Source: a virus (Duplodnaviria > Caudoviricetes). Taken from it: DNA of 51,791 bases. The notes under the pieces were generated by a model. That model did not search any database. It saw only the letters and a program-made list of their open reading frames with translations, and had not been told where the DNA came from. The stretch lies in IMG/VR virus record IMGVR_UViG_3300023218_000017, positions 1 to 51,791 of that record; one strand, given 5' to 3'. Position 1 is the first letter of the stretch. Each line of letters begins with the position of its first letter. The translations under genes and the position numbers were made by a program. This document shows positions 3 through 23,053 of the stretch, one piece after another.

Positions 3-113
3 GCAAACTGGCTCGGCGTCGACGACGGTGACCGGCGGGTGATGTGGGAATGCGACCAAACTTTAACCCGGGGCGCTCCCGGCGTTTGTGTGGTGATCCG
101 TGATGCAAGTTGA
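3..113 (+). CDS. C-terminal fragment of a gene entering the window, possibly a RusA-like Holliday junction resolvase
   Basis: Frame 3 reads ANWLGVDDGDRRVMWECDQ...GVCVVIRDAS*; the LGxDD...W..Q...V.V.I pattern resembles RusA-family C-termini. Partial. Confidence 0.4.
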   Translation, partial: ANWLGVDDGDRRVMWECDQTLTRGAPGVCVVIRDAS

Positions 114-561
114 TTCCGAAGAACTGAAAGCTGCGATTCTTGCCTCTCGAGCCGCCGGAAAGATGACCAACCGGCTCGGCCGGCTGGGGCTGGAGATCGC
201 CCGGGGGTACCTGAGCCGCGATCAATTCGGGGGGTATTCGGTTCAGGAGAAAGAAGACATTCTGGGGGCCTGGTCGGTCCAGTTCGTGAAAAACTGGAGC
301 AACCTGGATCCCGAAGCGAATCCGCACAGCTACATCACCACCATCGTCCGGAACTGCTGGAGGATGTACGAACGGTCGACGCAGCGGCGTCTTCGGCGGG
401 AACACGCGAAGGCCGAAGAGGCGTATTTTGAGCAAATGAACTCGATCAGCCGTTTTGTGCGATACCACGCCAACTTGTTGGGAAATTTCGAGGACGTGCT
501 TTCAGCCGAAGAATTCCACCAAAAGATCTCCGGAGGCATAGATAAAGGTAATCATGAGTAA
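100..561 (+). CDS. T4 gp55-like late-transcription sigma factor
   Basis: VDSEELKAAI...TNRLG...IARGYLSRDQFGGYS..KEDI...NWSNLDPEANPHSYITTIVRNCW parallels the gp55-family pattern (VNNKE...IA..LS...NF..Y...E.MI...NFDP...NP.AY.TQI); lies directly upstream of terS. Confidence 0.7.
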   Translation: MMQVDSEELKAAILASRAAGKMTNRLGRLGLEIARGYLSRDQFGGYSVQEKEDILGAWSVQFVKNWSNLDPEANPHSYITTIVRNCWRMYERSTQRRLRREHAKAEEAYFEQMNSISRFVRYHANLLGNFEDVLSAEEFHQKISGGIDKGNHE

Positions 562-1057
562 GAAACTGACACCGAAACAGGACCGCTTTTGCCGGGAATA
601 CGTGATCGACCTGAACGGGACACAGGCGGCGATTCGGGCGGGATACTCGCCGAGGACGGCTGATCGGCTGGCTTATGAGAACTTGAGGAAACCTGAGATT
701 CAGTCTCGTGTTTCGGAGTTGGCTAAGAAAGTTGATGAAAAAGCGGAGGTGAATGGCGAGCGCATCCTGCGGGAACTACTCTTGATGGCTCATTTTGATC
801 CTTCCGATGTGGCCAACAAGTGTTCGAGTCCGGCGGAGATCGCCCTGCTTCCGGAGCATGTGCGACGCGCAATTGCGGGATGGTCCTGGGACAAGCACGG
901 CAACTTCATCCTGAAGTTCCACGACAAGCTCCGCGCGCTCGAACTCCTCGGCAAGCACCGCGCCCTGTGGACCGAGCGGCATGAGCACAAGCATTCCGGC
1001 GATATGACATTCAACATGGTCTTGCAGACCGAACCTCCAACCAAAGAAACAAAATGA
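554..1057 (+). CDS. terS: Terminase small subunit
   Basis: N-terminal LTPKQDRFCREYVIDLNGTQAAIRAGYS HTH motif and C-terminal K.HDKLRALELLGKH, typical of TerS. Confidence 0.92.
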   Translation: MSKKLTPKQDRFCREYVIDLNGTQAAIRAGYSPRTADRLAYENLRKPEIQSRVSELAKKVDEKAEVNGERILRELLLMAHFDPSDVANKCSSPAEIALLPEHVRRAIAGWSWDKHGNFILKFHDKLRALELLGKHRALWTERHEHKHSGDMTFNMVLQTEPPTKETK

Positions 1058-1305
1058 TACTCGACCACGAAGGGAACACGGTCGGCTTTGCGGCCGACAA
1101 GCAACAGGCACTTGCCAAAATCAACGACCGGATCGAAGAGCGCATTCGCTGGGTGCTGGGCGGCCGCGAACCAGCCGAGGGCGAAGTGGAGCAAAAAGGA
1201 AAGCTTGAAGTCCAGCCGAACGGGAACTGGGCGTTCACCTGGGAGGACGGCGTTTTGCTCCGTGTGCTTTTCGAGAGAGGAAAGATAAGGATGCTCAATG
1301 AGTGA
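1054..1305 (+). CDS. Hypothetical protein, 83 aa
   Basis: ATGA overlap with the terS stop codon. Confidence 0.6.
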   Translation: MILDHEGNTVGFAADKQQALAKINDRIEERIRWVLGGREPAEGEVEQKGKLEVQPNGNWAFTWEDGVLLRVLFERGKIRMLNE

Positions 1306-1435
1306 TATTTGCATCATCTGCGCAAATCCCGTGGGACCCGGCCGGACGCACTCAGATGGCGAATGGCCATCGAAACCCTGCGGCTATCCTTACTTTGTTG
1401 TCGGATATTACCCGCGCGGCTTGTTATGCTTTTAG
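1298..1435 (+). CDS. Small hypothetical protein, 45 aa, with CxxC
   Basis: MSDICIICANPVG...LLCF*; the ATG overlaps the previous stop (ATGAGTGA). Not in the ORF track. Confidence 0.4.
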   Translation: MSDICIICANPVGPGRTHSDGEWPSKPCGYPYFVVGYYPRGLLCF

Positions 1436-1457
1436 ACAAACAACAAAAGGATGTTAT

Positions 1458-1652
1458 ATGAACATAAACACACTACTAACTATTATTTGGACGCTGATAC
1501 TTATTAAAATGCTTAAAACAAGAAAAATAGACAAGGAGTTCTGGTATGAAAAGGGCCGAAATGATGGATGGACTCAAGGGTGGGACGATTATCGTGTAGC
1601 TAAAAATACTCATTCCCAAAGTAAACATGATGAACACCGAGATGTGACATGA
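1458..1652 (+). CDS. Small AT-rich membrane-anchored hypothetical protein
   Basis: AAAGGA RBS before ATG 1458; hydrophobic N-terminus; YEKGRNDGWTQGW repeat-like tail; markedly AT-rich. Confidence 0.55.
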   Translation: MNINTLLTIIWTLILIKMLKTRKIDKEFWYEKGRNDGWTQGWDDYRVAKNTHSQSKHDEHRDVT

Positions 1653-1725
1653 CTGCCCGCTCTCCAGCTTCCACCTCGCCAATGACTCCCGCCGGGCAGT
1701 CATTGTCACCAGCGTCTAGTTCTGC
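1629..1725 (-). mobile_element. attC-like site L1
   Basis: Minus strand: GCAGAAC-tagac-GCTGGTGA-ca-A-tgactgccc...gggcagtca-tg-TCACATC-tcggt-GTTCATC, i.e. 7-5-8...7-5-7 geometry with two unpaired bases. Confidence 0.8.
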
Positions 1726-2413
1726 TTTGCCGCCGGTGCTCGATGCGTGCTGCGGATCTCGGATGTTCTGGTTCGACAAGCGCGATCCTCGCGGCCTGTT
1801 CGTTGACAAACGCCGCGAATCCCACACGCTGACTGACATCTCAAGCAAAGGCGGAATCCGGGAACTGGTGGTCGATCCTGACCTGCAATGCGACTTCACC
1901 GCGCTGCCCTTCCCTGATGCGTCGTTCCCTCTGGTGGTGTTCGATCCTCCACACTTGGAGCGCAACGGATCAAGCGGATGGGTAGGGCTGAAATACGGAA
2001 CGCTGAAAGGCGACTGGCGGGAAACGATCCGCTCCGGATTCTCGGAATGCTTTCGGGTGCTCAAGCCCGATGGAACGCTCGTCTTCAAGTGGTGCGCCGA
2101 CGAAATCCCGGTATCGCAAATCCTCGCGCTGACTCCAGAGCGGCCGCTCTTCGGACACAAAAGCGGCAAGCGGCAGCAAACGCACTGGATCACTTTTCTT
2201 AAGCAGAACGATAAAGTGGAGCTACCGCCGCCATCGACTCCCCAAAACGACCATGAAACCGAAAGACAAAAAAGAGTTCCAGGCTCTCACAAACCTCCAA
2301 GATCGCGCCAAGTGGCTCCTGAAAAAAGGCGTCACGGCGAAAGTGACAATCAACACCGAAAGCCTCGAAGTGGTGGTGACCGCCTGCTCGGCTGGTGTGG
2401 CGCTTCCTGGTGA
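1649..2413 (+). CDS. Class I SAM-dependent (probable DNA adenine) methyltransferase cassette gene
   Basis: VLDACCGSRMFW SAM-binding motif, VVFDPPH catalytic motif, FRVLKPDGTLVFKW. The core is about 1730-2200; the C-terminal tail is read-through past a truncated attC. Confidence 0.88.
   Translation: MTARSPASTSPMTPAGQSLSPASSSALPPVLDACCGSRMFWFDKRDPRGLFVDKRRESHTLTDISSKGGIRELVVDPDLQCDFTALPFPDASFPLVVFDPPHLERNGSSGWVGLKYGTLKGDWRETIRSGFSECFRVLKPDGTLVFKWCADEIPVSQILALTPERPLFGHKSGKRQQTHWITFLKQNDKVELPPPSTPQNDHETERQKRVPGSHKPPRSRQVAPEKRRHGESDNQHRKPRSGGDRLLGWCGASW
2203..2232 (-). mobile_element. Truncated (half) attC-like site L2
   Basis: GCAGAAC is the exact complement of GTTCTGC at the start of the MTase cassette. 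It is followed by one arm only (gataaagtggagctaccgccgcc); no partner arm found. Confidence 0.5.
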
Positions 2414-2483
2414 ATGGCAGTCCGAAGAGGAGGCTGTCGTCGGTGGCACCACATGGCTCGCGCAGAAAGCAGGTCTGGCATAA
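2253..2483 (+). CDS. Hypothetical protein, 76 aa
   Basis: Its TAA stop lies inside the GCATAAC core of the next attC-like site. Confidence 0.65.
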   Translation: MKPKDKKEFQALTNLQDRAKWLLKKGVTAKVTINTESLEVVVTACSAGVALPGEWQSEEEAVVGGTTWLAQKAGLA

Positions 2484-2541
2484 CAATGAGCACTAGCATG
2501 AGTGAGGAACGAACGAATTGTCTAGCTGCGTCTGGTTCTCC
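2478..2541 (-). mobile_element. attC-like site L3
   Basis: Minus strand: GGAGAAC-cagac-GCAGCTAG-a-ca...tg-CTAGTGC-tcatt-GTTATGC; extra base at position 4 of L''. Confidence 0.85.
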
Positions 2542-2821
2542 ACGAGCAAGGATGCTCGCTCTCACTGCTGCGGGATGTTCTTTTCAGTGGGAACCGGGGT
2601 TGAGTCACGGCGGTGACGGGACATATAACGACTCGGCCTATATTCATTGGCTTCGAGCGGAAAAAATCTGTGAAACTTGGGGATTTTCCTACGACGAATG
2701 CAAGCAAGCATGGCAAGACTTTCGGGATCGCCATAAAGACCGATACCCGAGCGGTAATTGGCAACCCGTAGAACAAGCTTATTTGGATTCATTGGAGAAC
2801 GGAAAGGTCGAGCATGAGTGA
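2498..2821 (+). CDS. Hypothetical cassette protein (start inside attC L3; ATG 2486 is an alternative)
   Basis: Starts MSEERTNCL; its 3' part is duplicated, inverted, at 51666-51791. Confidence 0.7.
   Translation: MSEERTNCLAASGSPRARMLALTAAGCSFQWEPGLSHGGDGTYNDSAYIHWLRAEKICETWGFSYDECKQAWQDFRDRHKDRYPSGNWQPVEQAYLDSLENGKVEHE
2675..2800. repeat. 126-bp perfect inverted repeat, copy 1 (partner 51666-51791)
   Basis: Base-by-base match of acttggggattttcc...attggagaac to the reverse complement of the window end. Confidence 0.95.
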
Positions 2822-2857
2822 GGAACGAACGAATTGTCTCGAACCGTCTGGTTCTGT
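2794..2857 (-). mobile_element. attC-like site L4
   Basis: Minus strand: ACAGAAC-cagac-GGTTCGAG-a-ca...tg-CTCGACC-tttcc-GTTCTCC; same loop as L3, with compensatory stem changes. Confidence 0.85.
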
Positions 2858-3089
2858 GTCGCGGGCAGTCGATAACTGCCGCAAGGCTAAAGTAACAAGG
2901 GTTAAGCCTGCGATTCATCACGGTTGCATTCGATTCCTGATTTGCGTCGAAGGTGTTGAGGAAAACGTAGGGGGGATCGTTTACAGTTTTGACGATTCGG
3001 TTTCTTTGTCAGAAATGCAAAGTATCGCCAATGAGGTGAATGAGATTATTTCACAGAACGGGGATTATACGACAGCTGTCCGATATTAA
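2814..3089 (+). CDS. Hypothetical cassette protein, 91 aa
   Basis: Starts inside attC L4 (MSEERTNCLEPSGS); bounded by GTTCTGT and ACAGAAC. Confidence 0.7.
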   Translation: MSEERTNCLEPSGSVSRAVDNCRKAKVTRVKPAIHHGCIRFLICVEGVEENVGGIVYSFDDSVSLSEMQSIANEVNEIISQNGDYTTAVRY

Positions 3090-3096
3090 AAACCAG

Positions 3097-4371
3097 ATGC
3101 CTGATATTCCCGTAACCAAAAATTACGTCAGCCTAAAAAAAGCGGACGCGGCGGGGAACTTTTACAAGGTCCTTGAAGGGTCTTCCGGCTCGGGCAAGAC
3201 CTTTTCGATCATCCAATATCTGATCGAGAAAGCGATGAGCGGCAAGCGGCGTATCACGGCCTATCGAAACGATCAGGCAACGTGCCGGGATTCGATTATC
3301 CTGGATTTTCAAATTGTGATGGCCGAACAGTTCGGGCTCTGGAAGCAGGCGAATTGGAATGGATCGAACATGGAATATAAATTCCCGAATGGATCGATCT
3401 GGCAATTTCGGGGCACGAACACGCCGGCCAAATTGCACGGGCCCCGGCGCGAAATCTCCTGGGGAAACGAGGTGATGGAGATCAGTTGGGAAGCGCACCG
3501 GCAAATCTCCCTGCGGACGAGTGAGGAGATGATCTATGACTTCAATCCGTCGCTGAATTACCACTGGATTTTCGACCGAATCATGCCCCGGACGGACTGC
3601 GCGCATATCCACTCGACATTCCGGGACAATCCGATGCTCCCGGAGAAAGCCCGGCTGGAGATCGAGGGCATGGAGCCGACGCCGGAGAACATAGCCGCGG
3701 GCACGGCGGACGAATGGGGCTGGTCCGTCTATGGTCTGGGCCGACGCGGCCGGCGCGAAGGGGCGATTTTCAAGCTGTGGGACATCACTGACGATTGGCC
3801 GGACCCGATGCTGTGCCAGCGGTGGGGGTTCGGGATCGACTATGGTTTTTCGCTGGATCCCACGGCCGTCGCGGAGTGTGCGCTGTTTCAGGACCGGCTT
3901 TATCTTCGGGAAAGACTCTACGAAAAAGAGCTGGTCGCCCAGGCGAACGCGCTCGACCCGGAAACACCCAGCATTGAGGGCGCGTTGCGGGAAATGGGGA
4001 TCCCGGAGCACGCGCGAATCCATGCGGAAAGCGCACGGCCGGAGATCAACCGGGCACTCCAGAAGTCGGGATTCAAGATTGTGCCTACGATCAAACGTTC
4101 GGATTCAATCCTCGCGGGGATCGACCGCCTGCGCACCTACCCGATAATGATCCACCGAAATAGCCAGAACATGCAGCGGGAGTTCGAGAGCTACACCTGG
4201 GACAAGAACGCGGCGGGCGAGTATCTGGATCGTCCGATTGACCGGGACAACCACCTGGTTGACGCGGCCCGGTATTGGGCGCTCGGAGAAATGGCTCCGC
4301 AGCGAAGCATAATGGCAGGGAAACGGCCGAAGTCACGCCGGGCGAAAAGCAACTTGCGGACATGGCGGTGA
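3097..4371 (+). CDS. terL: Terminase large subunit, PBSX-like
   Basis: Walker A EGSSGSGKT, Walker B ISWGNEV, DFNP motif, HSTFRDNP, nuclease motifs GIDYGF and NHLVDAARY. Confidence 0.93.
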   Translation: MPDIPVTKNYVSLKKADAAGNFYKVLEGSSGSGKTFSIIQYLIEKAMSGKRRITAYRNDQATCRDSIILDFQIVMAEQFGLWKQANWNGSNMEYKFPNGSIWQFRGTNTPAKLHGPRREISWGNEVMEISWEAHRQISLRTSEEMIYDFNPSLNYHWIFDRIMPRTDCAHIHSTFRDNPMLPEKARLEIEGMEPTPENIAAGTADEWGWSVYGLGRRGRREGAIFKLWDITDDWPDPMLCQRWGFGIDYGFSLDPTAVAECALFQDRLYLRERLYEKELVAQANALDPETPSIEGALREMGIPEHARIHAESARPEINRALQKSGFKIVPTIKRSDSILAGIDRLRTYPIMIHRNSQNMQREFESYTWDKNAAGEYLDRPIDRDNHLVDAARYWALGEMAPQRSIMAGKRPKSRRAKSNLRTWR

Positions 4372-4850
4372 AGCTGCATCAGTCCGGGGATTCGCGCGTG
4401 ATTCTTTGGGCGCTGGAGCAGATGCAACAGGAATGGCCGGAACTGGATTTGTTTCGGTGGGCGAAAGGTGAAAGCCTGCAAAGCAAGTCCGAGTGGATCG
4501 CAGCCAACGCTCGGTTCTGGCTGGTCTGGCACGGTGAACGCCTTGTCGGCTATCTCGCCGCAACCGATCAGGGCAGAGGCCGATGGGTGTTTCACTTCGG
4601 AGGCCGGCGGGTGCTACCGCCAAACATTTTCCTTTCGGGATGGCGTGAATTTCTCGAAATCGCGGAGCGTGAAGGGGTCCGGTTGGTGGCGGCATATATA
4701 CCACCGGAGCGGCCCGCAGTCCGGCGGATGGCTCGACTTTTTCAATTCCGACGATTTTCGAAAATATTATGGGCATGGGAGGCAGTGTACCGAAACTCAA
4801 ACCGCCGCCAAAGGCTGCGCCAAAAACGACCCCGGAAGACGAGGACGTAA
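4362..4850 (+). CDS. Hypothetical protein, possible GNAT/acetyltransferase fold
   Basis: Overlaps the terL stop; FWLVWHGERLVGY...VRRMARLFQFRR pattern. Confidence 0.45.
   Translation: MAVKLHQSGDSRVILWALEQMQQEWPELDLFRWAKGESLQSKSEWIAANARFWLVWHGERLVGYLAATDQGRGRWVFHFGGRRVLPPNIFLSGWREFLEIAEREGVRLVAAYIPPERPAVRRMARLFQFRRFSKILWAWEAVYRNSNRRQRLRQKRPRKTRT
4690..4700 (+). promoter_or_regulatory. Candidate late promoter CGGCATATATA, copy 1
   Basis: Exact 11-mer seen four times; this copy is about 70 bp upstream of the small gene/portal pair. Confidence 0.55.
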
Positions 4851-4960
4851 AGCAGGCGGGAGACGCGGAGCGCCGGAGGCTGGCCGCAATGCAGGGGCGT
4901 AACCAGACCGTGCGGAGTTCGCGCAACGCCGCCGGGTATAAAACCGTTCTCGGAGTCTGA
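4769..4960 (+). CDS. Small virion/assembly protein preceding the portal
   Basis: MGMGGSVPK.KPPP...RRRL...KTVLG pattern and position typical of T7 gp7.3-like/BPP-1-type genes. Confidence 0.65.
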   Translation: MGMGGSVPKLKPPPKAAPKTTPEDEDVKQAGDAERRRLAAMQGRNQTVRSSRNAAGYKTVLGV

Positions 4961-6609
4961 TGGACGAACTAGGCGATAAAGTTGTCTCGGGCTATGATGC
5001 GCTTAAATCCGCGAGGGGGACCTTTGATTCCCGGCTGGATGACATCACGTTCTATGTCCTTCCCGAGTATGAGAATCAGAATGAGCGGACCAGAGGCGAC
5101 GAAACCCCGGACCGTCCTGCGTCTTCGGCTCCGACGGATGCGGCGATTCTGCTGGGCGGACATTTGTTCTCGCACCTGGTGCAGACCGGGGACCAGTGGT
5201 TCACGATCCGGGCGCGTAGCGATTCGGACGCGGATACGGACCGCGAGACGAAGGAATGGCTGGACAAAGCCGGGAAAAAAGCACTCAAGGCGATTCAGAA
5301 CAGCAATTTCGCGGAAGCGTTTGGCGAGATGTGCACGCTTTACGGAACCTACGGGACCGGATCGATTTCGACCGATTGGGACCAAGAACGGGGCGAACTT
5401 ATGTTTCGCAATCATCCGATTTGCGGAAACATTTACCTGACCGAAGACGCGCGCGGCCGCGTGAACGGCGTGACAAGGCTAATCCGATACACGGCGGAAC
5501 AAGCCGTCGAGCGATACGGGCGGGACAAGTTGCCAAAATCTGTGATCGATTGCTACGGCGACCCGGCCAAGCAGGGCGAGAAGCACGATTTTATCCATCA
5601 GGTCTCGCCGAATCCGAATTACAACCCGGAACGCCGGGACAGCGGATCGATGAAATACCGTTCGCTGCACGTTCATCGGAAAGACAAGAAGGTGATCGAG
5701 CAGGGCGGGTTCCGCACTTTCCCGTTTGCCTGCCCTCGCTTTATCAAGGTTCGTGACTTCCCATATGGCTATGGCTCCGGGCATCTGGCATTGCCCGCGA
5801 TTCGCGAGCTGAACAAAGCGGAAGCGGATTTCATGGACGCTTACGAGATGGAGGCATGGCCACCCGTCTGGTTCCCGGACGAAGAGGCGGTGGAAACCTC
5901 TGAAATGGCTCCCCGAGCGATGAATTACTTCGATCCGCAACTAGGCGTACCCTTTCAACTCAAGACCAACGGCAACCCGGGCGCGCTTTTCAACCGGATC
6001 ACACAACTGGAACAACGGGTCAACCGGCAGTTCTTTATTGATGTGTTTCTTGCGGTCTCCGCCCGCTACGATCAGGAAAAGACCGCCCGGGAAGTCGATG
6101 AACTCTCCGAGGAAAAGCTCTCGAGTATCGGGCCTATGGTGTCCCGCCTGCAAAGCGAGTGCTTCGCTCCGATGATCGAGCGGGTCGTGGATCTTCTGAT
6201 CGAATCCGAGGTGATCGATCCCCCTCCCCCGAATTTGGCCGGCGAAGGCTTCCGGATCGTTTACACGTCCCGAGTGGATTCGAAGCTGGCGGCAATCGAG
6301 GTCAACCAAATGCTCCGGGCCGCCCAGGAAGCTTCCACGCTTCTGGCGATGGATGCCGAGAATCCGCAATTTTCCCGAGTCTTCAAGGCCGAGGAAGGGG
6401 CGATCAATATTCTCGAGCGCCGGAACGTGAACATGGATTTGATTCCGACGAAAAACGACCGCCGAAAAATGGACCAGGCGGATGCCGAGGCTATGGCGCA
6501 GGCCAAGCAGCAAGAGGCAATCGCCCAGCACGTCGGCAAGATCGACCCCGGCAAGCGCCCAGAGGACGGTTCGCCCATCGATGAGCTGGCGAAAGGAGGA
6601 GGGCTCTAA
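4960..6609 (+). CDS. Portal (head-tail connector), T7 gp8/BPP-1 type
   Basis: 549 aa; YGTG, GGFRTFPFACPRF, YGYG.G, KTAREV...EEKL..IGPMVSRLQSE...P.IER motifs. Confidence 0.9.
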   Translation: MDELGDKVVSGYDALKSARGTFDSRLDDITFYVLPEYENQNERTRGDETPDRPASSAPTDAAILLGGHLFSHLVQTGDQWFTIRARSDSDADTDRETKEWLDKAGKKALKAIQNSNFAEAFGEMCTLYGTYGTGSISTDWDQERGELMFRNHPICGNIYLTEDARGRVNGVTRLIRYTAEQAVERYGRDKLPKSVIDCYGDPAKQGEKHDFIHQVSPNPNYNPERRDSGSMKYRSLHVHRKDKKVIEQGGFRTFPFACPRFIKVRDFPYGYGSGHLALPAIRELNKAEADFMDAYEMEAWPPVWFPDEEAVETSEMAPRAMNYFDPQLGVPFQLKTNGNPGALFNRITQLEQRVNRQFFIDVFLAVSARYDQEKTAREVDELSEEKLSSIGPMVSRLQSECFAPMIERVVDLLIESEVIDPPPPNLAGEGFRIVYTSRVDSKLAAIEVNQMLRAAQEASTLLAMDAENPQFSRVFKAEEGAINILERRNVNMDLIPTKNDRRKMDQADAEAMAQAKQQEAIAQHVGKIDPGKRPEDGSPIDELAKGGGL

Positions 6610-6857
6610 TGCCCGAGCAAACCAGAACCGGGCTGCGCTCCGCGAATCTCGGTCGCCTGGTCGAGCAAGTCAGCCGACTGCCCGAAGGCAAGGAACTGCT
6701 GGAGGCCATCGACCGGGAATGCGGCTATCGGCGAACGGTATTCGCTCCGGGTTGCGAGCGGCAGAATAATTTCAACCAAGGAAAACAGCACGTGGCCAAT
6801 TGGCTGCACGAAAAACACGACAAATACCTAATCCAAGGATCAGAAGATGAAAAATAA
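6609..6857 (+). CDS. Small protein between portal and scaffold (Bbp19-like)
   Basis: EGKELLEAI...FNQGKQ.V pattern and synteny. Confidence 0.65.
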   Translation: MPEQTRTGLRSANLGRLVEQVSRLPEGKELLEAIDRECGYRRTVFAPGCERQNNFNQGKQHVANWLHEKHDKYLIQGSEDEK

Positions 6858-7713
6858 GTGGATACGAGTCTTTTTGCGCGAACAAGCCGGCGACGGCGCT
6901 GACGGCGGAGGCGGTGATGGCGGACCTAATGACGGCGCTGACGGTTCCGACGGCGGCGATGGCGGCGGCGATGGCGGAGCCAACCCCTGGTATGTCGACG
7001 CCGGATTCTCCGAAGACGTGGTGAATACGGATGGGATGTCCGATTACCTCAGCCGATTCAAGAGCGCCGAAGAAGCGGTGAAAAGCGGCTATGAAGCCCG
7101 CAAGAAGCTCGGCAACGCGACCGAGGGCATGGTCAAAGTGCCCGGCGAAGATGCGAGCGAAGAAGAAAAGGCCGCGTTCCGCGAAGCTGTCGGCGTCCCG
7201 GAAAGTCCGGACAAATATTCCTGGAAGCCTCCGGAAGGCATGGAGGTCGATCAAGAAATCTTTCAGGATCGTCTCGGTAAGCTGCATGAGGCCGGACTGA
7301 GCGATGCTCAGGTCTCGCAGGCGATGGACCTGTATGCGGAGGAAATCACCCGCATGAACGAGGATTTTCAAAACCACCAGGCCGAGATCGCCAAGGAGAC
7401 GGAGGATTCGCTCCGGAAAGAATGGGGCGAGAAGTATGATGACAACATCAAGGAAGCCCGGGCCGTCGCCGAGAAATACGGCGTGATCGAAGCGATGAAG
7501 GAGACCGGGATGATCAACCAGCTCGGGGTCATCAAGATGCTGCACGAAGTGTCCCGGTCGACGCGAGAGGACGGGATCGACAGCGGAGGCGGAAACATGA
7601 GCGCTTCGGACGAACTTGCGTCGCTGAAGGAAAACCCCGCATGGACGGACAAGACGCATCCTGAGCACCGGAAGTTGGTCGAACGGGCCGTCGAGCTACG
7701 CAAGCGACTTTGA
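6847..7713 (+). CDS. Capsid scaffolding/assembly protein
   Basis: Acidic Gly/Asp-rich N-terminus; G.PESPDKY, LRKEWG..YD and DKTHPEH motifs; lies between portal and capsid. Confidence 0.8.
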   Translation: MKNKWIRVFLREQAGDGADGGGGDGGPNDGADGSDGGDGGGDGGANPWYVDAGFSEDVVNTDGMSDYLSRFKSAEEAVKSGYEARKKLGNATEGMVKVPGEDASEEEKAAFREAVGVPESPDKYSWKPPEGMEVDQEIFQDRLGKLHEAGLSDAQVSQAMDLYAEEITRMNEDFQNHQAEIAKETEDSLRKEWGEKYDDNIKEARAVAEKYGVIEAMKETGMINQLGVIKMLHEVSRSTREDGIDSGGGNMSASDELASLKENPAWTDKTHPEHRKLVERAVELRKRL

Positions 7714-7743
7714 GACTTTTCCACCGGTTCCACGGGTTCACGT

Positions 7744-7781
7744 AAGCGCCCCTGTCACTTCCAGGCAGGGGCGCTTTTTTT
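7744..7781 (+). terminator. Intrinsic terminator
   Basis: aagcgcccctg...caggggcgctt stem followed by a T tract. Confidence 0.85.
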
Positions 7782-7784
7782 GGG

Positions 7785-7795
7785 CGGCATATATA
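7785..7795 (+). promoter_or_regulatory. Candidate late promoter CGGCATATATA, copy 2
   Basis: Immediately after the terminator and upstream of the major capsid gene. Confidence 0.7.
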
Positions 7796-7938
7796 CCCGC
7801 AGAGAGGACAACCGGATTATCTCCGCCCCGCTCGACCAAAGGGTGGCGACCTACGCAAGGCGAGCCCCGCGAAATGCGGACAACCGAGCCGGATGATTCA
7901 ACCCACGTTTCAATCCACAACAAAAGGAGATATTTACC

Positions 7939-8895
7939 ATGCCGAATCCGGACATGACCCACTATTACCAGCAGTTCTGTGACAACGTCAATGATCTGGC
8001 TGGTGCCCCCAACCGCTCCGTCCTCCGGGAACTTTGCGAGCGCGACAACAAGCAAGGTTCCGTCGTCTATCTCGATTCCGCAGGCGCGGGCGAGGATCTG
8101 ACGATTCAGGACCTCAAAGCCGACAAGAAGACTCGCAAGACGTATGAGGCGGAAGCCACGAAGACGCTTGAGAAGTTCAATCAAATCTTCACGCCGCACA
8201 ACGACATCAACCGCCAGCGGACGCTCGCGCAGCCCAAGCTCATCGAGTGGGGCCACAGCTTCGACCGCAGCGAGAAAATCCTAGAGATCGTCGATCCGCA
8301 AAATAAGACCGTACGCAACGGAATGCGCGGAATCTTCAAGCAGCAGGACCAGCTGGTTTTGAACGGGATTTCCGCCTCCTCGGTCACTCGCGTGGACGGC
8401 GACACTTCGGAAATCACTCCGCAGACGGACAACATGCCCGCAGGGCAGGTTATCGACTCGGCTCAAAACGACTACATGGGCCGCAAGGACATGACTCATA
8501 TCGTGAAGCTGTTCGAGGACCAGTATGTCACCGATCAGATCTTCTGCCTCATCTCGCCCACGGCGAAGCGCGGCATCATCGACAACGATGACAAGATCAC
8601 CGATGCGGACTTCCTCGCCCACAGACAGGCGTTCGATGAGGAAGGCAAATTTGTCCCGGGCAAATTCCCGGACATTTACGGCATCAGCTTCATCGTTCAT
8701 CCGTTGGTTCCGGCCGACAAGTTCTTCGCCTTCACTCGCGAAGCGCTTGTTCTCAATGAGTTCGAAGCGCTCAACTCTCACATGGACGAGGCGCCGACTC
8801 AGCGGTTCAGCTACATCGCATATATTTGCGAGAGTTGCGACTGCAAGCGGGTCGACGACCTGCAAGTGGTTCACGGCACGATCACCACGGCGTAA
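7939..8895 (+). CDS. Major capsid protein (BPP-1/T7-supergroup-like)
   Basis: 318 aa; strong AAGGAG RBS; QQFCDNV start and C-terminal KRVDD..VV; follows the scaffold and is followed by a terminator. Confidence 0.78.
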   Translation: MPNPDMTHYYQQFCDNVNDLAGAPNRSVLRELCERDNKQGSVVYLDSAGAGEDLTIQDLKADKKTRKTYEAEATKTLEKFNQIFTPHNDINRQRTLAQPKLIEWGHSFDRSEKILEIVDPQNKTVRNGMRGIFKQQDQLVLNGISASSVTRVDGDTSEITPQTDNMPAGQVIDSAQNDYMGRKDMTHIVKLFEDQYVTDQIFCLISPTAKRGIIDNDDKITDADFLAHRQAFDEEGKFVPGKFPDIYGISFIVHPLVPADKFFAFTREALVLNEFEALNSHMDEAPTQRFSYIAYICESCDCKRVDDLQVVHGTITTA

Positions 8896-8917
8896 ACCCT
8901 TTGGTTTATCGGTTCCA

Positions 8918-8958
8918 GGGGCGGGCGGCTAAGTTCGCCCGTCCCTTTTTTTTTCTTT
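8918..8958 (+). terminator. Intrinsic terminator after the capsid gene
   Basis: ggggcgggcg...cgcccgtccc stem plus a long T tract. Confidence 0.85.
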
Positions 8959-8994
8959 CACGATTTCTTGATGAACAATTTCCCACTTTTTTAG

Positions 8995-9630
8995 ATGCAA
9001 GGCAGAGCCGAAACCCTCATCGATGTGGCGAATCTTTCCCTGGGTTTGCTCGGGCAACCGCCCATCACGACGCTCACCCCTTCGGCGGACACGGCGGCCG
9101 GCCGCAAGCTGGCCGTTTTTCTTTATGTCGCGATCGACGAAGTGCAGCGGTCCTTTTACTGGCATGAGCTGATCGCCTCCGAAGCGATTGCCGCGGAAGC
9201 GACGGACCATTTCGACGGCCGTAAGCGCTACCCGCTCCCGGAAAACTGCCTCCGTCCTCTCGGGGTCCGGCTGGAAGGCGATGCGCCCCTGCCGGAAAGC
9301 GCCTACACGAAGATTGTCGCTCAAGATTCGGAGTATGATTACCAGGTCGAGGGCGACACGTTAATCAGTCACGCCACGGACGTGCATGTCGTTTACATCA
9401 AACGAAGCGACGATCCGACTGAATGGACGAGTGAACTGCTGGACTGTATCTACCACGCGGCGGCCGTAAAAGCGGCGCAGAATATCACGCAGGACCCCGG
9501 CATCGTGCGCAATGTCCTCGAAGCCTACGAGATCATGGTCAAACCGCACGCGCGCCGCCTGCAGAGCAAATACAAGACAACCCGAACTTTCCTGCCGCGC
9601 GGTTTCTCCGCATGGCGAACCCACCGGTAA
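8995..9630 (+). CDS. Tail tubular protein A / head-tail adaptor
   Basis: IDVANLSLGLLGQPPITTL, YPLPENCLR, YQVEGDTL motifs. Confidence 0.8.
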   Translation: MQGRAETLIDVANLSLGLLGQPPITTLTPSADTAAGRKLAVFLYVAIDEVQRSFYWHELIASEAIAAEATDHFDGRKRYPLPENCLRPLGVRLEGDAPLPESAYTKIVAQDSEYDYQVEGDTLISHATDVHVVYIKRSDDPTEWTSELLDCIYHAAAVKAAQNITQDPGIVRNVLEAYEIMVKPHARRLQSKYKTTRTFLPRGFSAWRTHR

Positions 9631-9634
9631 CGCG

Positions 9635-12469
9635 ATGGCAACCTCCCGGATCATACGTAAGAACTTCAATGGCGGCGAGATCGCGCCGGAGCTCCATTTT
9701 CGCAGCGACCTTGAGACCTATCACAATAGCTGTAAGTCGCTCAAGAACATGTTGGTGACGCCCTGGGGGGCCGTGACCCGGCGACCGCCCACGGAGCTGT
9801 TGGCACAAATCGATACGGACGTTTACGGGGTGCCGGTCAAGTATTTGCCCTTCCGCTTCTCACTGTCCGAAGTCTTCCATATCATCTTCACGGACGGCAG
9901 CGGATCGGCCGGCACGGATGCGACCACGGCGGATATTATCGTTTTCGACGCGGGGGGGGCATTGCAAACGCTGGACGGTGCAAGCACGAAGATCCTTGAT
10001 ACGGTTTATGATCCGGGCGACCTGCTGGCCCTGCACCATATTCAGGTCAACGATTTCATCTACATGACCTGCGGCGGGGATTATCCGGTGCAGACGCTGA
10101 ATCGGTTTTTTGATGATGCTCAGGCTGCTAATCGATGGAGAATCGACGAATGGAATCTGTTTGGAGGTCCTTTTGCTGAGGAGAATTTGAATGTCGATTA
10201 TTCTATTACTGCAGTTACTTCGAGCTTCTACTCAGGATCAACTACATACGCAAAAGGGGATGTTGTTTTAGAGCTTCAGCTTGCACAGACAATCATAGCT
10301 GCTGAATGGGTGCTGGCAGGTTCTATTCAAGCGTCTACCGGACACGGTCAGACAGCTTGGTTCAACCAGTATCAACTGGAGATTACAACCATCGGATCCA
10401 TGGCTCCGATTGAAGCGGGTGACTTGATCTGGATCATTGGAATGACTGGATCAGGCGGCACAACCAGTGCACGAACGGGAGAATTTCATACCGAAAGCGA
10501 TACGAACGGTGATCTTTTTGGAATGTATCGAGTTGAGGAGCGAAAAAGCGCGACCAACTTCGTCTTAAGCAAGACGATCTACAACTATAAGGGCGCCGAA
10601 ACGGATGCGGAGACTGAAACAAATCCAACACTCTCGATTGATTCAGCCGTTGCAATCGATTCCAAGAAGACCGAATTTCACACCTCACTTCAAGACGGCA
10701 ATACAGGCAACGATTTAACGAGTGAAAACTTTTGGAGGTCGGACGGAGTCTACACCAAAGAGCTTCTATTATACACTCCAGTTCCATTTCTTGATTCGAG
10801 TTACGAAGGTAAGATCATGAAGATGGTCATCGACCAGAAAGATGATCTCAAAGGATTCTGGACATCAAACCAAGAGAGCAAGCCAGTGAATGGTCAAGGA
10901 ACTGTGGAACTCATCACGGAAGGCTCTGCATGGAGTGGCCTGCTTGAACTCCGCGCCTCTTATGACGCGGGAGCAAACTGGGGGACGATTGGGTTTATCC
11001 GTTCGGATAACGGAGCCAGTAACGGTAGCATTGAGCGAGAAATCAGCAACCCCAATGCTATATTGAAAGTTGTTCTGACAAATTGGTCTTTCCCGACAGG
11101 AAACTACGAGACTGAGGGGTGCTCATGGCGCCTGATCTTTAAAAATGATGTATTTCAGCTTTTTGAAATCACCGATGTAATTTCCGGAACGAATGCTACA
11201 GCGCGGCCAATCACTCCTATCACAGGTGTTTATGCTACCCATCGCTGGGCTCTTGAGCAGTTTACCGATGAAGACGGCTATCCGAATACGCTTTCCATCC
11301 ACGATGAACGCATGGTGTTCGGCGGCACAAAGCGCAAGCCGAACACGGTATGGGCCAGCCGGGTGAACGACTGGAACAACTTTCTGGAGGGCGATACGGA
11401 GGTCAGCCCTTACACGTTCACCATTAAAAGCGACAGTTTCGACTCGATCCGCTGGATGCGCTCGGCCCGGCAACTGATGATCGGTACGGACAATAGCGAG
11501 TCCACGATGGGGACCCGGGACACCTCGCAAGTCATCAGCCCGACGAATATCGACGTGCGGACGCATACCTATTTCGGGAGCGCGAACCTTCAGGCGGTCG
11601 TCACGGCGGACCTTGTGTTCTTCGTGCAGGGGCAGGCCGAGCGGGTCCGGTCCAGCCAATACGATTTCGGGACGGATCAATACCTCTCCTCGGAAATGTC
11701 GATCCTGGCCCATCACATCACGAAGCCGGGCATTAAGGAGATGAGCTTTCGTCGCCACCCTTATAGCAACATTTTTTGTGTGAAGAACGACGGCACGGCG
11801 GTTTCGTTTACCTACGAGCGGGAAAACCGAGTGAAGGGTTGGAGCCGTATCGAGATCGGAGGTGCGACCATCGTGAGCGCGGCGGCAAATTACTCGGAGG
11901 CCGGAGATATTGTGGCCGGGGTTGTTAAGCGCGGCAGCGAATACTTCCTCGAGTTCTTCGGCAATACGGACGCGGATACGGTTTATCTGGACGGGCAAAA
12001 GCAGTTCGAGGGTGAAGATTATAGTGCGGGCGTTGCTGTGCCCTGGGCGGATGCTACGGGCTTGACCGTTGTTCGCGACGATGTGGAACTCGACCCGACC
12101 GAGTTCACGATGTCAGGGGGCACTCTGACGATTCCCGGGGCGACGGACGGCACGGTGACGGTCGGCTACAAATTCGCTTGGAATGTGGAGCCGACTGACT
12201 TGATTGCCCTCGGCGACTTCGGGGCGTTCAAGCGAATCTCGGCGCTTTCGCTGTATCTGTTGCAAAGCGGAGGCTGCGAGGTGGCGATCAACGGGGTCGA
12301 AAGCCCGTTTCAGGCAGCCCTCCAGCTTTCTCCGGCGGAACGGCTGCACGGAGAATATTCGTTAAGCGTCGACGGTGGCTCGGAGAGCTCGATTTCGATC
12401 CGCCTGTCCGGCGACGGGCACCGCCCTTTCAACCTGTCCGCCCTCGGCATACATGGAGGTGCGTCATGA
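9635..12469 (+). CDS. Tail tubular protein B / nozzle
   Basis: NFNGGEIAPEL..RSD...Y, PWGAVTRRP, GYP....HDERMVFGG, VWASR, YERENRVKGWSR motifs. Confidence 0.85.
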   Translation: MATSRIIRKNFNGGEIAPELHFRSDLETYHNSCKSLKNMLVTPWGAVTRRPPTELLAQIDTDVYGVPVKYLPFRFSLSEVFHIIFTDGSGSAGTDATTADIIVFDAGGALQTLDGASTKILDTVYDPGDLLALHHIQVNDFIYMTCGGDYPVQTLNRFFDDAQAANRWRIDEWNLFGGPFAEENLNVDYSITAVTSSFYSGSTTYAKGDVVLELQLAQTIIAAEWVLAGSIQASTGHGQTAWFNQYQLEITTIGSMAPIEAGDLIWIIGMTGSGGTTSARTGEFHTESDTNGDLFGMYRVEERKSATNFVLSKTIYNYKGAETDAETETNPTLSIDSAVAIDSKKTEFHTSLQDGNTGNDLTSENFWRSDGVYTKELLLYTPVPFLDSSYEGKIMKMVIDQKDDLKGFWTSNQESKPVNGQGTVELITEGSAWSGLLELRASYDAGANWGTIGFIRSDNGASNGSIEREISNPNAILKVVLTNWSFPTGNYETEGCSWRLIFKNDVFQLFEITDVISGTNATARPITPITGVYATHRWALEQFTDEDGYPNTLSIHDERMVFGGTKRKPNTVWASRVNDWNNFLEGDTEVSPYTFTIKSDSFDSIRWMRSARQLMIGTDNSESTMGTRDTSQVISPTNIDVRTHTYFGSANLQAVVTADLVFFVQGQAERVRSSQYDFGTDQYLSSEMSILAHHITKPGIKEMSFRRHPYSNIFCVKNDGTAVSFTYERENRVKGWSRIEIGGATIVSAAANYSEAGDIVAGVVKRGSEYFLEFFGNTDADTVYLDGQKQFEGEDYSAGVAVPWADATGLTVVRDDVELDPTEFTMSGGTLTIPGATDGTVTVGYKFAWNVEPTDLIALGDFGAFKRISALSLYLLQSGGCEVAINGVESPFQAALQLSPAERLHGEYSLSVDGGSESSISIRLSGDGHRPFNLSALGIHGGAS

Positions 12470-13029
12470 AACATCTTGCCTTTAATTTTTTCTTGATCCT
12501 TGCCTTCATCCCCGTGAAAAACGAAGAGGCGAGTCTGGCTTTCCTCCCCGTCTTGGCGGCGGCCTTCACTGCGGCGACCGGGTTATTCGGAGCGGTATCG
12601 TCTTACCGGGCCGGGCAACAGCAAGCGGACCTGGCCGAACAGCAGGCTGAAATCAACGCGGAGATGGCGCGGCGCGAAGCGGAAGCGGATGCCCGGGAGG
12701 AATCCGAAGAGATGCGCCGCCTGCGCGATCAACAGCGCCGCCGCCGGGCGCAAATCGAGGCGGCCTACGCGAAAAGCGGCGTGCTTCTCGAAGGCACCCC
12801 CGCCGAAATGTTGACCCGTCAGCGCGAGACGGACGAATTCAACGTGCAGTCCCGCCACTACGAAGGCAACGAACGCCGAAAAACCATGCTCTGGTCTGCG
12901 GACCAAGGGAAGCGGATGGGAGGGGCGCAAGCTTCGGCCATGCGCCGCCGGGCGAACAGCAGTTTCATTTCCGGGATCGGCAACACGGCTGCGTCCTCTT
13001 ACGGCAATTACAAAATGTGGAGCCAGTAA
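12466..13029 (+). CDS. Internal virion/ejection protein (gp14-like)
   Basis: Ala/Gly-rich N-terminus, coiled coil, AAYAKSGVLLEGTP motif; follows the nozzle. Confidence 0.7.
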   Translation: MKHLAFNFFLILAFIPVKNEEASLAFLPVLAAAFTAATGLFGAVSSYRAGQQQADLAEQQAEINAEMARREAEADAREESEEMRRLRDQQRRRRAQIEAAYAKSGVLLEGTPAEMLTRQRETDEFNVQSRHYEGNERRKTMLWSADQGKRMGGAQASAMRRRANSSFISGIGNTAASSYGNYKMWSQ

Positions 13030-13032
13030 ACC

Positions 13033-14766
13033 ATGCCAAGAATCCCATACGACCCCACGAAATACGGACCACGCGCCCAACGTCAGGGCCGCGTCGATGC
13101 CTCCGGCGCGATCCGCGCGATCGGTCAGGAGGCCGCGGCCAACCGTGAACTGGCCGGGGCGGCTCAGAATGCCGTCAACCTCGGCATGGCGCTCCGGCAA
13201 GACAAGATCGAGGAAGACACGTTTGCGGATCAGCAACGCTTTGAATCGGTGGCGACCGAGGCCGAACTCGACTTGAACAAGCGGCTTGAATCGATCCAGG
13301 TTGCCGACGGCGTGAACTACCGGGCGGAAGCGGAATCGGCCACCGAAAACTATCTCGGCCAGCTTCGCGATTGGGTGGATGCGGGCAACATTACGCACAA
13401 ACAGAAGGAAGACCTGTTTCGTCGGCGGATCGCGGAGATGGAGACGAAGCTCAAGGAGCGTGTCGGCGAGGGCGAAATGCAGTTTCAGCGGCAACGGAAT
13501 ATCGGCGCGGGCAAGCGCGGTATCGAGACGGGCATCCGGCTGAACGACCCGGAGGCCATCGAGCGCGGAGTGATGAGCCTGCACCTGGCGATGGCCCGGG
13601 GGTATGTCAGCGAGGACGAGGCGGACATGATGTATGAGAAGCACGTTCGCAGTGCGAAGGGCGAAGCCGATAAGCGGACGATGACTACCGCCGAGAATTT
13701 ACTGGCCGAAGGGGACGTGAAAGGGTTCCGCGAGAAAGTCGACGCCCTGGAACTGCCGACTCAGGACGAAAAGAAGAAGATCAAGCGGGAGCACCTTTCG
13801 AGCCACGCCTACAACTCCGCCGCGCTTGCCGTGCAGGAAGCGGAAGGACTGGAGGACCTGGACTCGGTCGAATCGATGATCGAAAACAGCAAGGATTTAA
13901 CGGCCGGCAATCGCCCCGTCCTGATGCGGTCGGTCAACGCCCAGAGACGACGTATCGAGCGGGCGCAAATCGCCAACGAGCGGGACCTTCTAAGCGCGTT
14001 TGCCGACGGCGAGGGTGATTGGTCGGAGTTTCAGCGCCGTGCCTCACTGGATACCGCTGAAGGGCTCACGGCGGACGCAGAGCAAGTGCTTCGACCTGTT
14101 CTTGAGTCTTTGGAAGACGAATATCAAGCCAGTCGTCAGTTGGAGCGTGACCAGGACAAGGTGGCTTATCGGTCGATGCTCGACACGCTGGCGGCGGAAC
14201 GCTTTGGCGAGACTTCGACGGGGAGGATCGACAAGAACACGCCGGAGGGCGAAGAGATCACGAAAAAACGCCGGGCGAAATACGATGAACTTTTGGAGCA
14301 AATTGACAATCTGGCAGTCGGCACTCGGGCGAAAGCTAAGCTTCTTGACGAATGGTTGCAGGTCCGGGCAACGGACTTGATCGAGCCGGGTAAGGAAGAC
14401 CCGTCTGCGGCGTGGTTCAATGCCCGCGAATTATCCTCCCCGGAAAAGCGCATTCGCGGGGAAGTCGTAAATTCATACCGGAGACTCTTGGAATCGGGCG
14501 ACGTGCCGGAAGGGTTTGGCCAAGCGGTAGAGGCCGATGACATGCGGATTGCAGAATTTTTCGAGCAGAACGAGAACCCGACCTTGGAGCAGTTAAAAAA
14601 GCTCCGTCAGGACGTTCTCGGGCCGCGTGAAGCGGAAACCAGACGGCGCAAGGCGCGGGGCGAGACTCGCGAAAACGGATTGCCCTTGCCCGGCGACGTG
14701 GTGGAAGGCTACCGCTACCGGGGCGGCGATCCGGCCAACCCCGAATCGTGGGAGGTGGCGGAATGA
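13033..14766 (+). CDS. Internal virion/ejection protein (gp15-like)
   Basis: MPRIPY start, helical composition, C-terminal GYRYRGGDPA.PESWE motif. Confidence 0.65.
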   Translation: MPRIPYDPTKYGPRAQRQGRVDASGAIRAIGQEAAANRELAGAAQNAVNLGMALRQDKIEEDTFADQQRFESVATEAELDLNKRLESIQVADGVNYRAEAESATENYLGQLRDWVDAGNITHKQKEDLFRRRIAEMETKLKERVGEGEMQFQRQRNIGAGKRGIETGIRLNDPEAIERGVMSLHLAMARGYVSEDEADMMYEKHVRSAKGEADKRTMTTAENLLAEGDVKGFREKVDALELPTQDEKKKIKREHLSSHAYNSAALAVQEAEGLEDLDSVESMIENSKDLTAGNRPVLMRSVNAQRRRIERAQIANERDLLSAFADGEGDWSEFQRRASLDTAEGLTADAEQVLRPVLESLEDEYQASRQLERDQDKVAYRSMLDTLAAERFGETSTGRIDKNTPEGEEITKKRRAKYDELLEQIDNLAVGTRAKAKLLDEWLQVRATDLIEPGKEDPSAAWFNARELSSPEKRIRGEVVNSYRRLLESGDVPEGFGQAVEADDMRIAEFFEQNENPTLEQLKKLRQDVLGPREAETRRRKARGETRENGLPLPGDVVEGYRYRGGDPANPESWEVAE

Positions 14767-20700: not shown

Positions 20701-21047
20701 TCAGGGCTTTGATTGCTGGTCCGGGGACCGCGCTGCCTGTCGCCGGTCAAATAATCGACAGCCTCGGAAACACACTCTCCGGGGCAGATGAGACGTTCTT
20801 CGGCTCGACCGGATCACCTTTGATTGATTCGACAAAAAAACTAGGAAGAAACGCGGTTAAGGCCGCTACCGATCCGAGTCCGGGAGCGTTCTTTGATGTG
20901 CTGCAAGATGCGGCCCAATTCAAGGGCATACCACTCAAGCAAGGCGTCGAGCAATACGAAGCGATTGAAGACGTGATTAACGATGATACCGAATTTCCCC
21001 TTCAACGCCTGGGCGGATGGTCCGAATGGGCTCTTGGAGAAAAGTAG
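14763..21047 (+). CDS. Large internal virion/polyvalent ejection protein, about 2094 aa
   Basis: PWERY repeats at the N-terminus, ESGTEGAQ motif, degenerate metallopeptidase-like segment, inserted domain, helical C-terminus with hydrophobic segments. Confidence 0.75.
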   Translation: MKPWERYQKSEKSGPWERFQKADTATVLDTRPKRGEEGFQNYWEPEQASVADWLERQHDQPFEDAVRDYEKKAKAFGLSGDPKSDLATLKHRESTLKARRKSSLGGAAGGQGWSPQLRSNLKAEGRSMARFGENVARNTPAVVSKALWDSLAGTIDLAAFAADFAMMGDPRGAPPQMRRAVETPTEWMREVADLTGEAYGVDEDFESTISGMVMEGAGTVATGVATRGRSIWGQMFTEGLRDSEAERGKKFSEFTDSEKDLALFKSMVYSAIGGKFERAGLGKIAPKWFKSDAVLPKSRVARMLRAGTYESGTEGAQNVLLNMIGAAVEGDRELLTGQRFKDLAIDMAMGFALGTSANVTLEAGAAAVERLDRKGEIARTIDRQMPYREDGSFNPAYKPMPLFNADGSWNMPLVDAARELEKAREEEEALTDTESEQAETVRERVAKAEQTFEGLMADAEPRDMGEAAWNIRRYNAKLASGLNPMEGATPTDWKFIDEYYSDEEVGAHVVQSTGSEDLVPVALQAKHGDEEAQMEFVNRTLVPADSEIMVEAGVTPEEAEAMREVEVRESEDFYRELYPEMFEAETPQQVRAEAMRDMIDFIGTRQLEGSTIEEVDEVRGFDAELNDLRDRGMTEAEIERFAFNRVQAAGLDPTDQANRPEMLAVYGRNESEYRRGVWRDVSKLYRGADPLTVVEETTEGFLKRMIAEGEMTWQDVAAWREMMGDRGGETEAELTEWVSEQTKAWMVGKSALLEREGNMPNAFRRFLAQMFEHFRHVFRRAAQLRGMDRRGELDADFRHFLDRANGMDEAFLRERLEREESAEAAIADQGPELMEALGGLKGIPRPDMEPEYRGELELVFESFGKNWKSYPKEKRTLDGVAEGLREKGFNTPGADEVVELLTRASRGEKIYGSDAFEGQASFAMAPMEQVLVRADELVPIVKSTGGLVEPNNSGKIIGESKREILGDYPNSDSGIIWNVSGRSLNKMFKQGRKAGEPPEGHRVRLTAMADIGEIIRVAKAFEVLNERDSHNTGKAFDLYAPYSIDGALYRLRIKGKVLKRQGNKAHSMRVEDVLIADEPVAQTRRFEAEGQERPIATGSTMTIREMFSGVNPYSGISFSLGRMDDLGGDPEQTSSARERTPEERIFAEKQREFRQTDSPTKAQRDELKKLQIRAVESRKRQRLQQSAERKIAAAEERRLREIKELHDQGEDVTAKLERLDELRKNLPTAVRHRLGGDVQISRRKTTMGRQNELNRRIARAEELARGHEAMKRKAWLRRTLHRFGQRGKKAQKQADEMTAYVRDLLQVAAFAANSDDVQRVRENVSKPKTLTDAEYEQTIVDFLGILQPHRRDVGRIEAAYFATQELIRSGKYERAQFREAKLKEVNDRIEKGIDVLTRGEGAPSPNELTSEMLKRSKMDRSMNSIRFFLFDALNGMQEHMQVLDGERGGFFEKNIFRPAFEAKERELTLEREQLATTWDDIAGIFGGDYKKASIWIERAMNDVVPTDIQFIDGKDKEMKTRELSKMQAIDLLNQWGDPSLQPTFVEMGVTEETIQQVRAFVGKEGVELSEYLRERYASVGQAISEAHEIAEGYPLDLVDGYGGKAVRAGASKEVDLESIFEYDGTSGRATVKTGSFKARTENTLPLVFGDALTKFRQHMQEANHYISHAEIAKTLTKTFGKDSPESQEMRRAIISQHGQALMDAIDENIGRVIGGSFEQSRKMWGMLDKLRSDLTKGTLAAKPDIMVKQLTSAPAFIDELGPVEYSKAWAATMRDPLKWAALAYRTNYTKNRLNNSQFADIQDQINMRRGMGRKMRWDDLLMINVKAGDLGAIFMGGTPVYVHYYQKAKSEGMTDREAEKFAGSRFGAAADRAQQASSELSKGFYLGSNNAGIGRTFFMYLTSPLQYTRILNVSGYNLYRGLQAAHKKNPASVGKVGKELASAFFVFHLLLPQIFQAVASGLTAFSDDDETRELFWQRQFRALIAGPGTALPVAGQIIDSLGNTLSGADETFFGSTGSPLIDSTKKLGRNAVKAATDPSPGAFFDVLQDAAQFKGIPLKQGVEQYEAIEDVINDDTEFPLQRLGGWSEWALGEK

Positions 21048-23052: not shown

Positions 23053-23053
23053 T

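Follow-up and report, generated by a model that had tools for sequence, protein, structure and literature searches.

An attC-bounded cassette of reversed layout duplicated between two facing phage modules, and the probable role of a host integron integrase

Introduction

Clusters of attC sites without an integron integrase gene (CALINs) have been described in phages, where they were published as rare and static sequence, the question of natural movement being left open in the text of that report (Qi et al., 2023; PMC9892861). In the same work, it was shown that the integrase IntI1 recombines attC1 and attC2 of PH101, with a bias for the bottom strand (Qi et al., 2023). The bottom-strand crossover has been placed between A and C (Escudero et al., 2016; PMC4792948), copy-and-paste duplication of a cassette has been described as what replicative excision should lead to (Souque et al., 2021; PMC8024014), and the consensus of attG sites has been given as GWT (bioRxiv 10.1101/2022.09.11.507474).

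A literature search, in which few subscription papers were covered, returned no description of phage cassettes with reversed genes or of their natural movement. In the locus described here, three natural traces are seen, namely an exact cassette duplicate in two phage modules, a strain difference of three whole units, and the occurrence of one cassette in a second context.

Materials and methods

The window, i.e. the whole stretch of DNA that was analysed, is one linear virus record taken over its complete length of 51,791 nt. The test material consisted of contigs from three runs (X1, X2 and X3) of one study, a possible source of the window, aligned to positions 1-6000. Support for boundaries comes from short-read contigs, in which the unitigs leave the flanks of the two cassette copies unphased. 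Sites were sought with the attC grammar R''-L''-loop-L'-R', with one unpaired L-box base and a score out of 7, which is the grammar used in HattCI; as a control, the scan recovered the published TJE1 sites with their published polarity. For the count of gene polarity in the bacterial genome G101, 23 rows were taken, minus one duplicate and two rows without an ORF.

Results

The window holds two phage late regions that face each other, modules A and B, each with its own terS, terL, portal and capsid genes; array A lies upstream of terL in phage A, and array B upstream of terS in phage B (Table 1). When the window was compared with itself, the strongest inverted repeat was the one joining the two arrays, whose arms are 100% complementary over 126 nt (E 9.6e-62), the runners-up being imperfect repeats of 53-56 nt. 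The original prediction, that positions 2675-2800 are the reverse complement of 51666-51791 and that the match ends at GGAGAAC before each copy enters a different attC, is borne out on both points, as the copies split downstream of the common GGAGAAC into two different attC-like sites, L4 and R3. Since the window is the entire record, the other end of the match, at 2675/51791, is a contig break and not a biological boundary. Beyond this break, cassette L3 forms a separate 306-nt unitig (2495-2800) in all three runs; a foreign flank is attached before 2483 in two of them (X1 and X2; not listed in X3), and the R3 flank follows 2800 in two (X1 and X3; not listed in X2). These junctions extend the identity by 192 nt past the record end, where about 190 bp had been foreseen, and they give a repeat at 2483-2800, made of a 316-bp unit (2484-2799) and the common core letters. 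The identity ceases at 2483, and the contigs contain each of the second copy's junctions. The predicted stop at AA|C holds for the place, which lies one base beyond the crossover that had been foreseen (2483|2484), and fails for the letters: the outer triplet flanking the second copy is TAC, not AAC, and reads TA|C, or G|TA on the other strand. This G|TA flank departs from both GTT and the GWT consensus of attG. A changed third core base is reportedly tolerated.

Further support for a second copy comes from a database protein (P0001, on a 1,493-nt contig) that consists of the complete cassette L3 ORF with an R3-derived tail. Cassette depth is about the sum of the two copies in X2 (48, as against 19-29) and in X3 (17, as against 5 upstream) and is non-additive in X1 (20, as against 16-18), depth not being the same as copy number. 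Exact searches of viral contigs returned only L004 and L011/L047, all of which stop within or ahead of the cassette, and gave no match for the foreign-flank motif; a metagenome scan gave two weak partial matches, neither of them similar to the window at the DNA level. One match to a genome contig (L046) was rejected as a chance match within a gene.

The record ends 126 nt into the repeat, near a common assembler word length of 127, and another viral contig (L004), which has the same sequence as 2700-9196, likewise starts within the repeat. Together with the unphased flanks, these breaks could be taken to mean that the repeat is an assembly artefact, a long inverted repeat, or a single copy beside a 49-kb segment inverting between L4 and R3. 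Such an origin is extremely unlikely: two distinct upstream and two distinct downstream flanks are observed, no joint places the foreign flank directly on L4, and a joint in X3 (described below), along with the gene order of G003, a relative of module A, ties the backbone of A to L4 and terL. The contigs give no support to an inversion between L4 and R3, which was discarded. The breaks at the record end and in L004 would instead fit assembly branching at a genuine repeat.

Table 1. Coordinates of the features discussed; for attC sites the strand given as (top strand) is that of the attC top strand.
Feature	Coordinates	Strand	Description
attC L1	1629..1725	- (top strand)	97 nt; 6/7 L-box pairing; z -2.2
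Cassette L1, DNA methyltransferase	1635..2208	+	574 bp; phrog_954 E 2e-69; R''/far-end 4/4
Segment absent in variant (cassettes L1+L2+L3)	1635..2799	.	1,165 nt; joined at shared GAAC core
Cassette L2	2209..2483	+	275 bp; attC reduced to first half, missed by grammar scan; 76-aa ORF, phrog_18825
attC L3	2478..2541	- (top strand)	64 nt; 7/7; z +1.1 in array
Cassette L3, duplicated unit	2484..2799	+	316 bp; attC in front, ORF on attC bottom strand; loose ends 2483/2800; R''/far-end 4/4
L3 cargo ORF	2486..2821	+	107-111 aa; starts inside attC L3; last 6 residues from attC L4
Arm 1 of 126-nt exact inverted repeat	2675..2800	+	
attC L4	2794..2857	- (top strand)	64 nt; 7/7; near-identical sites in phage contigs L006-L008
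Cassette L4	2800..3058	+	259 bp; 91-aa ORF; ends just ahead of terL; R''/far-end 4/4
Module A, late region of podovirus-like temperate phage	100..24698	+	sigma factor, terS, terL, portal, capsid, tail, internal virion proteins, putative lysis genes
tRNA-3'-end-like fragment, candidate att core	24745..24769	-	sole strict T-loop motif in window; not a full tRNA
Module B, late region of second phage	24817..50501	-	terS, terL, portal, capsid, tail, 2,380-aa protein
attC R1	50688..50814	+	R3-like (86-89% repeats with R3); core minus one base; missed by scan
Cassette R2, DNA methyltransferase	50809..51351	-	70% aa, 69% nt identity to L1 gene
attC R2	51285..51357	+ (top strand)	73 nt; 7/7
Cassette R3	51352..51666	-	315 bp; 90-aa ORF; R''/far-end 3/4
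attC R3	51546..51672	+ (top strand)	127 nt; 7/7; supplies its ORF with ribosome-binding site and start codon
Arm 2 of repeat	51666..51791	-	3' part of second L3 copy, cut by record end, plus C of R3 core

The scan finds five sites in the arrays (L1, L3, L4, R2 and R3), four of which score 7/7. There are two perfect matches in each array, as against shuffle means of at most 0.01 and none in the remaining 47 kb, where the lone match is an unrelated one at 6/7. The sites are clustered in groups of at least two and no intI was found near them, the record being incomplete in that array B runs off its end. The R'' box matches the core found at the opposite end of its own cassette at 4/4 in three of the five window cassettes and at 3/4 in a fourth, the fifth giving 0/4 by the shift of a lost base, as compared with at most 2/4 for the neighbouring core taken as a control; in three other phages, the same comparison gives 4/4 in five of six cases and 3/4 in the sixth. 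The unit of movement is delimited on both sides at the bottom-strand AA|C crossover, with TA|C at one flank instead. L3 and L4 have 29 identical nt in common.

Folding of the bottom strand within the arrays has a z of -2.2 for L1 and lies between -0.5 and +1.1 for five others, no better than shuffles. The computed probability of the recombinogenic fold is 0.015-0.28 in the arrays and 0.20-0.73 when the cassettes are taken as circles, with attC L3 rising from 0.015 in the array to 0.73 as an excised circle, so that in this model insertion of L3 would be favoured over re-excision. The unpaired L-box base on the bottom strand, usually G, is C or A here. At R1 (50808-50814), where a core base is lost, and at L2 (2209-2250), where half of the attC is deleted, the frame of the preceding methyltransferase runs on, giving ORFs of 277 aa and 254 aa, respectively; these defects look like cassettes becoming fixed in place.

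While the usual integron layout has the gene on the top strand with its attC behind it, this arrangement is not found here. The genes of both modules run against the top strand of their attC sites and begin within their own attC, and the observed boundaries show a mobile unit with the order 'attC then gene' on the bottom strand, bounded by a core on either side. The same polarity is seen more widely, as the longer ORF lies on the opposite strand at 11 of the 12 perfect sites in six phage sequences, as against one of 20 callable sites in G101. Among homologues of the L3 cargo, agreement is confined to the stretch between the R'' position and the core-encoded 'LEN', which indicates that the next attC supplies the tail of the protein. 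With every gene beginning in its own attC and finishing in the following one, each move would also give the protein a new tail. The L3 cargo belongs to a small conserved family, with 10 full-length-type matches among 14 and invariant Trp, Tyr, Arg and Pro positions. It has no match in Pfam, PHROG or the Atlas; its structural model (pLDDT 65) matches no viral fold at E up to 0.001, and its best Z against the PDB, 5.8, is at the background level for helical proteins. In distant homologues (P0132-P0134), the conserved part ends at 'PN', maybe another core, which hints at cassettes there also. The related methyltransferase genes of L1 and R2 reflect an older sharing event. In run X1, the match of one contig is limited to 1742-1777, i.e. 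36 nt of the methyltransferase gene, and is loose at either end.

Near-identical strains have arrays that differ by whole cassettes. In one of the three runs (X3), one contig of depth 11.4 joins 1631 directly to 2797; the shorter side of this joint measures 26 nt with a likeness of 90, which places it in the weaker class of support. A unitig break at 1635 and a fall in depth to about 5 over the cassettes, both confined to X3, speak for it. The joint equals the product of excision between attC L4 and attC L1, or the state that preceded three insertions at L4. Upstream of it, the contig differs from the window by three bases, which points to another strain and makes gain and loss of the cassettes indistinguishable. 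Also in X3, a contig past cassette L4 (behind 3060) enters a different attC-like start, so that L4 is seen in a second context. Where the original prediction had taken the duplicate as the best evidence of an active system, this variant, which lacks exactly three cassettes, is the more direct evidence, and cassette swapping on the phage side looks active. Relatives also differ in where the array is found, as it lies between the sigma factor and terS genes in G003 and ahead of a putative helicase-like gene in L006/L007, and is lacking in G002. A variant of 1144-1268 with seven changes occurs in all three runs, and in all three the first six bases of the record differ, which indicates that more than one strain is present. 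In G003 (L057 9100-10381), two larger genes that do not look phage-like, the second apparently truncated, lie between the array and terS.

The modules themselves are, on balance, probably two prophages that share one tRNA gene of a Verrucomicrobiota-like host as their tandem integration site. For A, a syntenic relative of 36 kb, G003, stands alone and has a putative tRNA-like piece after its lysis genes, and G002 is a relative of B with upstream genes of its own and no attC array; as relatives of each module thus stand alone, a single phage with two capsid modules was rejected as unlikely. Exactly between the facing late regions, positions 24745-24815 hold a tRNA-like fragment and an arm-site-like stretch. 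A tRNA matching this fragment was not found in 301 Verrucomicrobiota genomes, a tRNA search found none in the window or in six relative loci, Rfam gave three matches at E 1-4.3, all under the gathering score, and the best match of the junction DNA in G101 has an E of 0.9. None of the contigs tested spans the A/B junction, and searches gave no longer contig that would take in the outer att sites, integrases or host flanks. Both modules end in giant probable injection proteins, at 14748-21047 (2,099 aa, with an LPD3 domain) and 24817-31959 (2,380 aa).

If A and B had resided in separate cells, each could have taken the cassette from a shared pool, with the record being chimeric or the modules having been joined later. 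This account, which we regard as unlikely, draws on the stand-alone relatives of each module and on the junction motif, which has no match in other viral contigs. It is opposed by several observations. The 16-mers of the junction region each occur once in the window, which leaves no internal repeat of the record to account for a mis-join, and the tRNA-like att motif sits exactly at the junction. The contig depths of A and B in X2 are alike (19.2 and 19.3), and one other viral set contains both modules at 100%. Lastly, the holin-like genes of the two modules (23492-23774 and 40543-40825) share end patches of 94% and 84% on an overall identity of 68%, a pattern that suggests recent exchange between the modules.

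These holin patches could equally be cited for homology-driven exchange of the cassette by RecT-type annealing or gene conversion, with the attC-like repeats as mere anchors, since they suggest that such exchange takes place here; a relative of module A encodes RecT, and there are the 29 nt common to L3 and L4. Even so, this route is very improbable for the cassette, as the flanks of its two copies have only 2 nt in common at one end and the core at the other, while the deletion in X3 falls at the 4 shared core nt and not at the 29-nt shared stretch.

As for the enzyme, a search of the record for a tyrosine recombinase gave no match to PF00589 at E up to 1, and no intI was found beside the array. 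Three near-complete phages with reversed arrays (G003, G004 and G005) likewise gave no match to TIGR02249 and none to PF00589 at first look. It could be proposed that the same cassettes, with the same boundaries, are moved by a phage tyrosine recombinase encoded in the early region of A or B, since both early regions lie outside the record and G003 does carry a divergent tyrosine integrase. This is improbable in light of the three phages just mentioned, whose reversed arrays come without a detectable integron-type enzyme, and of the position of the G003 integrase, which adjoins a tRNA-like att core in the manner of a prophage integrase. Sites of a reversed array have, in addition, been recombined by IntI1: the top strand of PH101 attC1 and attC2 lies on the + strand, while the four neighbouring deposited genes lie on the - strand, so that the experiments described for these two sites already show reversed-array sites to be substrates of IntI (Qi et al., 2023). 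The PH101 sites are found at L085 30536-32987 (record 75536-77987), and two of the four are nearly identical. Upstream of array A, there is one sigma-70-like site, at chance level.

A bacterial counterpart was found in one of 401 Verrucomicrobiota genomes (G101), the only one with the L3-type attC pattern, which has an integron integrase (IntI) over the cut-off and arrays of the same attC family. In G101, 19 of the 20 callable sites are in normal orientation and one is reversed, and the reversed site is identical to L3 at 51 of 56 nt. The reversed L3-like cassette (L069 88-360, G101:C136) has a Cys-rich ORF of 81 aa and lies among normally oriented cassettes. Many G101 sites (L069-L078) have ATC/GAT cores instead of AAC/GTT. 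From these similarities, G101 may be described as a bearer of the same attC family, and is not assigned as the host of phages A and B; a host search by terL matched one of the 401 genomes at 36% identity, which is uninformative.

Discussion

The repeat is quite probably one integron-type cassette that is present in two attC arrays and was moved in a copy-and-paste manner by a host integrase. Under this explanation, an ordinary integron integrase that the host supplies in trans would excise the cassette's bottom strand as a circle by recombination between two attC sites; replication would retain the donor copy, and the circle would insert into a different array within the same cell, at the core. 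A third array would be an equally possible source for both. The transfer that had been proposed, between the two modules or from a common pool, is accordingly supported as an event, with its alternative routes being indistinguishable; the enzyme, the direction of transfer and the physical linkage of the modules are what we infer. The reversed layout would keep inserted genes co-directional with late transcription of the phage, with the attC bringing a start codon and a ribosome-binding site, and the following attC providing the tail. More tentatively, and with slightly less than even confidence, phages may keep a mirror-image pool of cassettes that is traded by the host integrase among co-resident prophages and the chromosomal integron of the host, on short timescales.

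The locus connects the reversed cassettes of phages to an IntI-bearing array of this attC family in a bacterium. If confirmed, this would make integron integrases a source of mosaicism in the accessory genes of phages, DNA methyltransferases included, and the limits of these reversed cassettes would be set wrongly by tools in which a gene is assigned to the attC behind it.

Among described systems, the closest are the phage CALINs, which likewise consist of attC clusters without intI, include Methyltransf_11 cargo and, as described for them, serve as IntI1 substrates with a bottom-strand bias (Qi et al., 2023; PMC9892861). The PH101 array, in which the scan finds four of four sites, and two sites of MW202573 are also opposite to the annotated genes, while TJE1 (L082) has the normal orientation, unlike here. 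The text of that report makes no remark on the polarity of genes relative to attC, although its figures or annotation may show reversed genes, and it reports no natural movement; what differs here is that two phage modules share a duplicated cassette and that arrays vary by whole cassettes.

For the joined phages, a parallel is described in the tandem prophages prophiT36-2a/2b (PMC9934374), which also lie end to end, with an att-like piece of tRNA between them and shared patches, as opposed to the late regions facing each other here, where outer att sites and integrases would lie outside the record. The insertion at attG sites that has been reported (bioRxiv 10.1101/2022.09.11.507474) would explain how arrays are founded at different positions in phages, but the G|TA flank seen here is outside the GWT consensus.

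Canonical cassettes of class 1 and chromosomal integrons have, according to the work cited above, the same R and L box grammar, A/C crossover on the bottom strand, duplication and loss of several cassettes at once (PMC4792948; PMC8024014), and an R'' complementary to the cassette's own start is common to them and to the cassettes here. They differ in that here the gene is on the bottom strand and begins in its own attC, no intI or attI was found in the record, and one flank is G|TA. Since the CALIN features tested are present and the canonical gene orientation is not, the system is classed as a variant of integron cassette shuffling.
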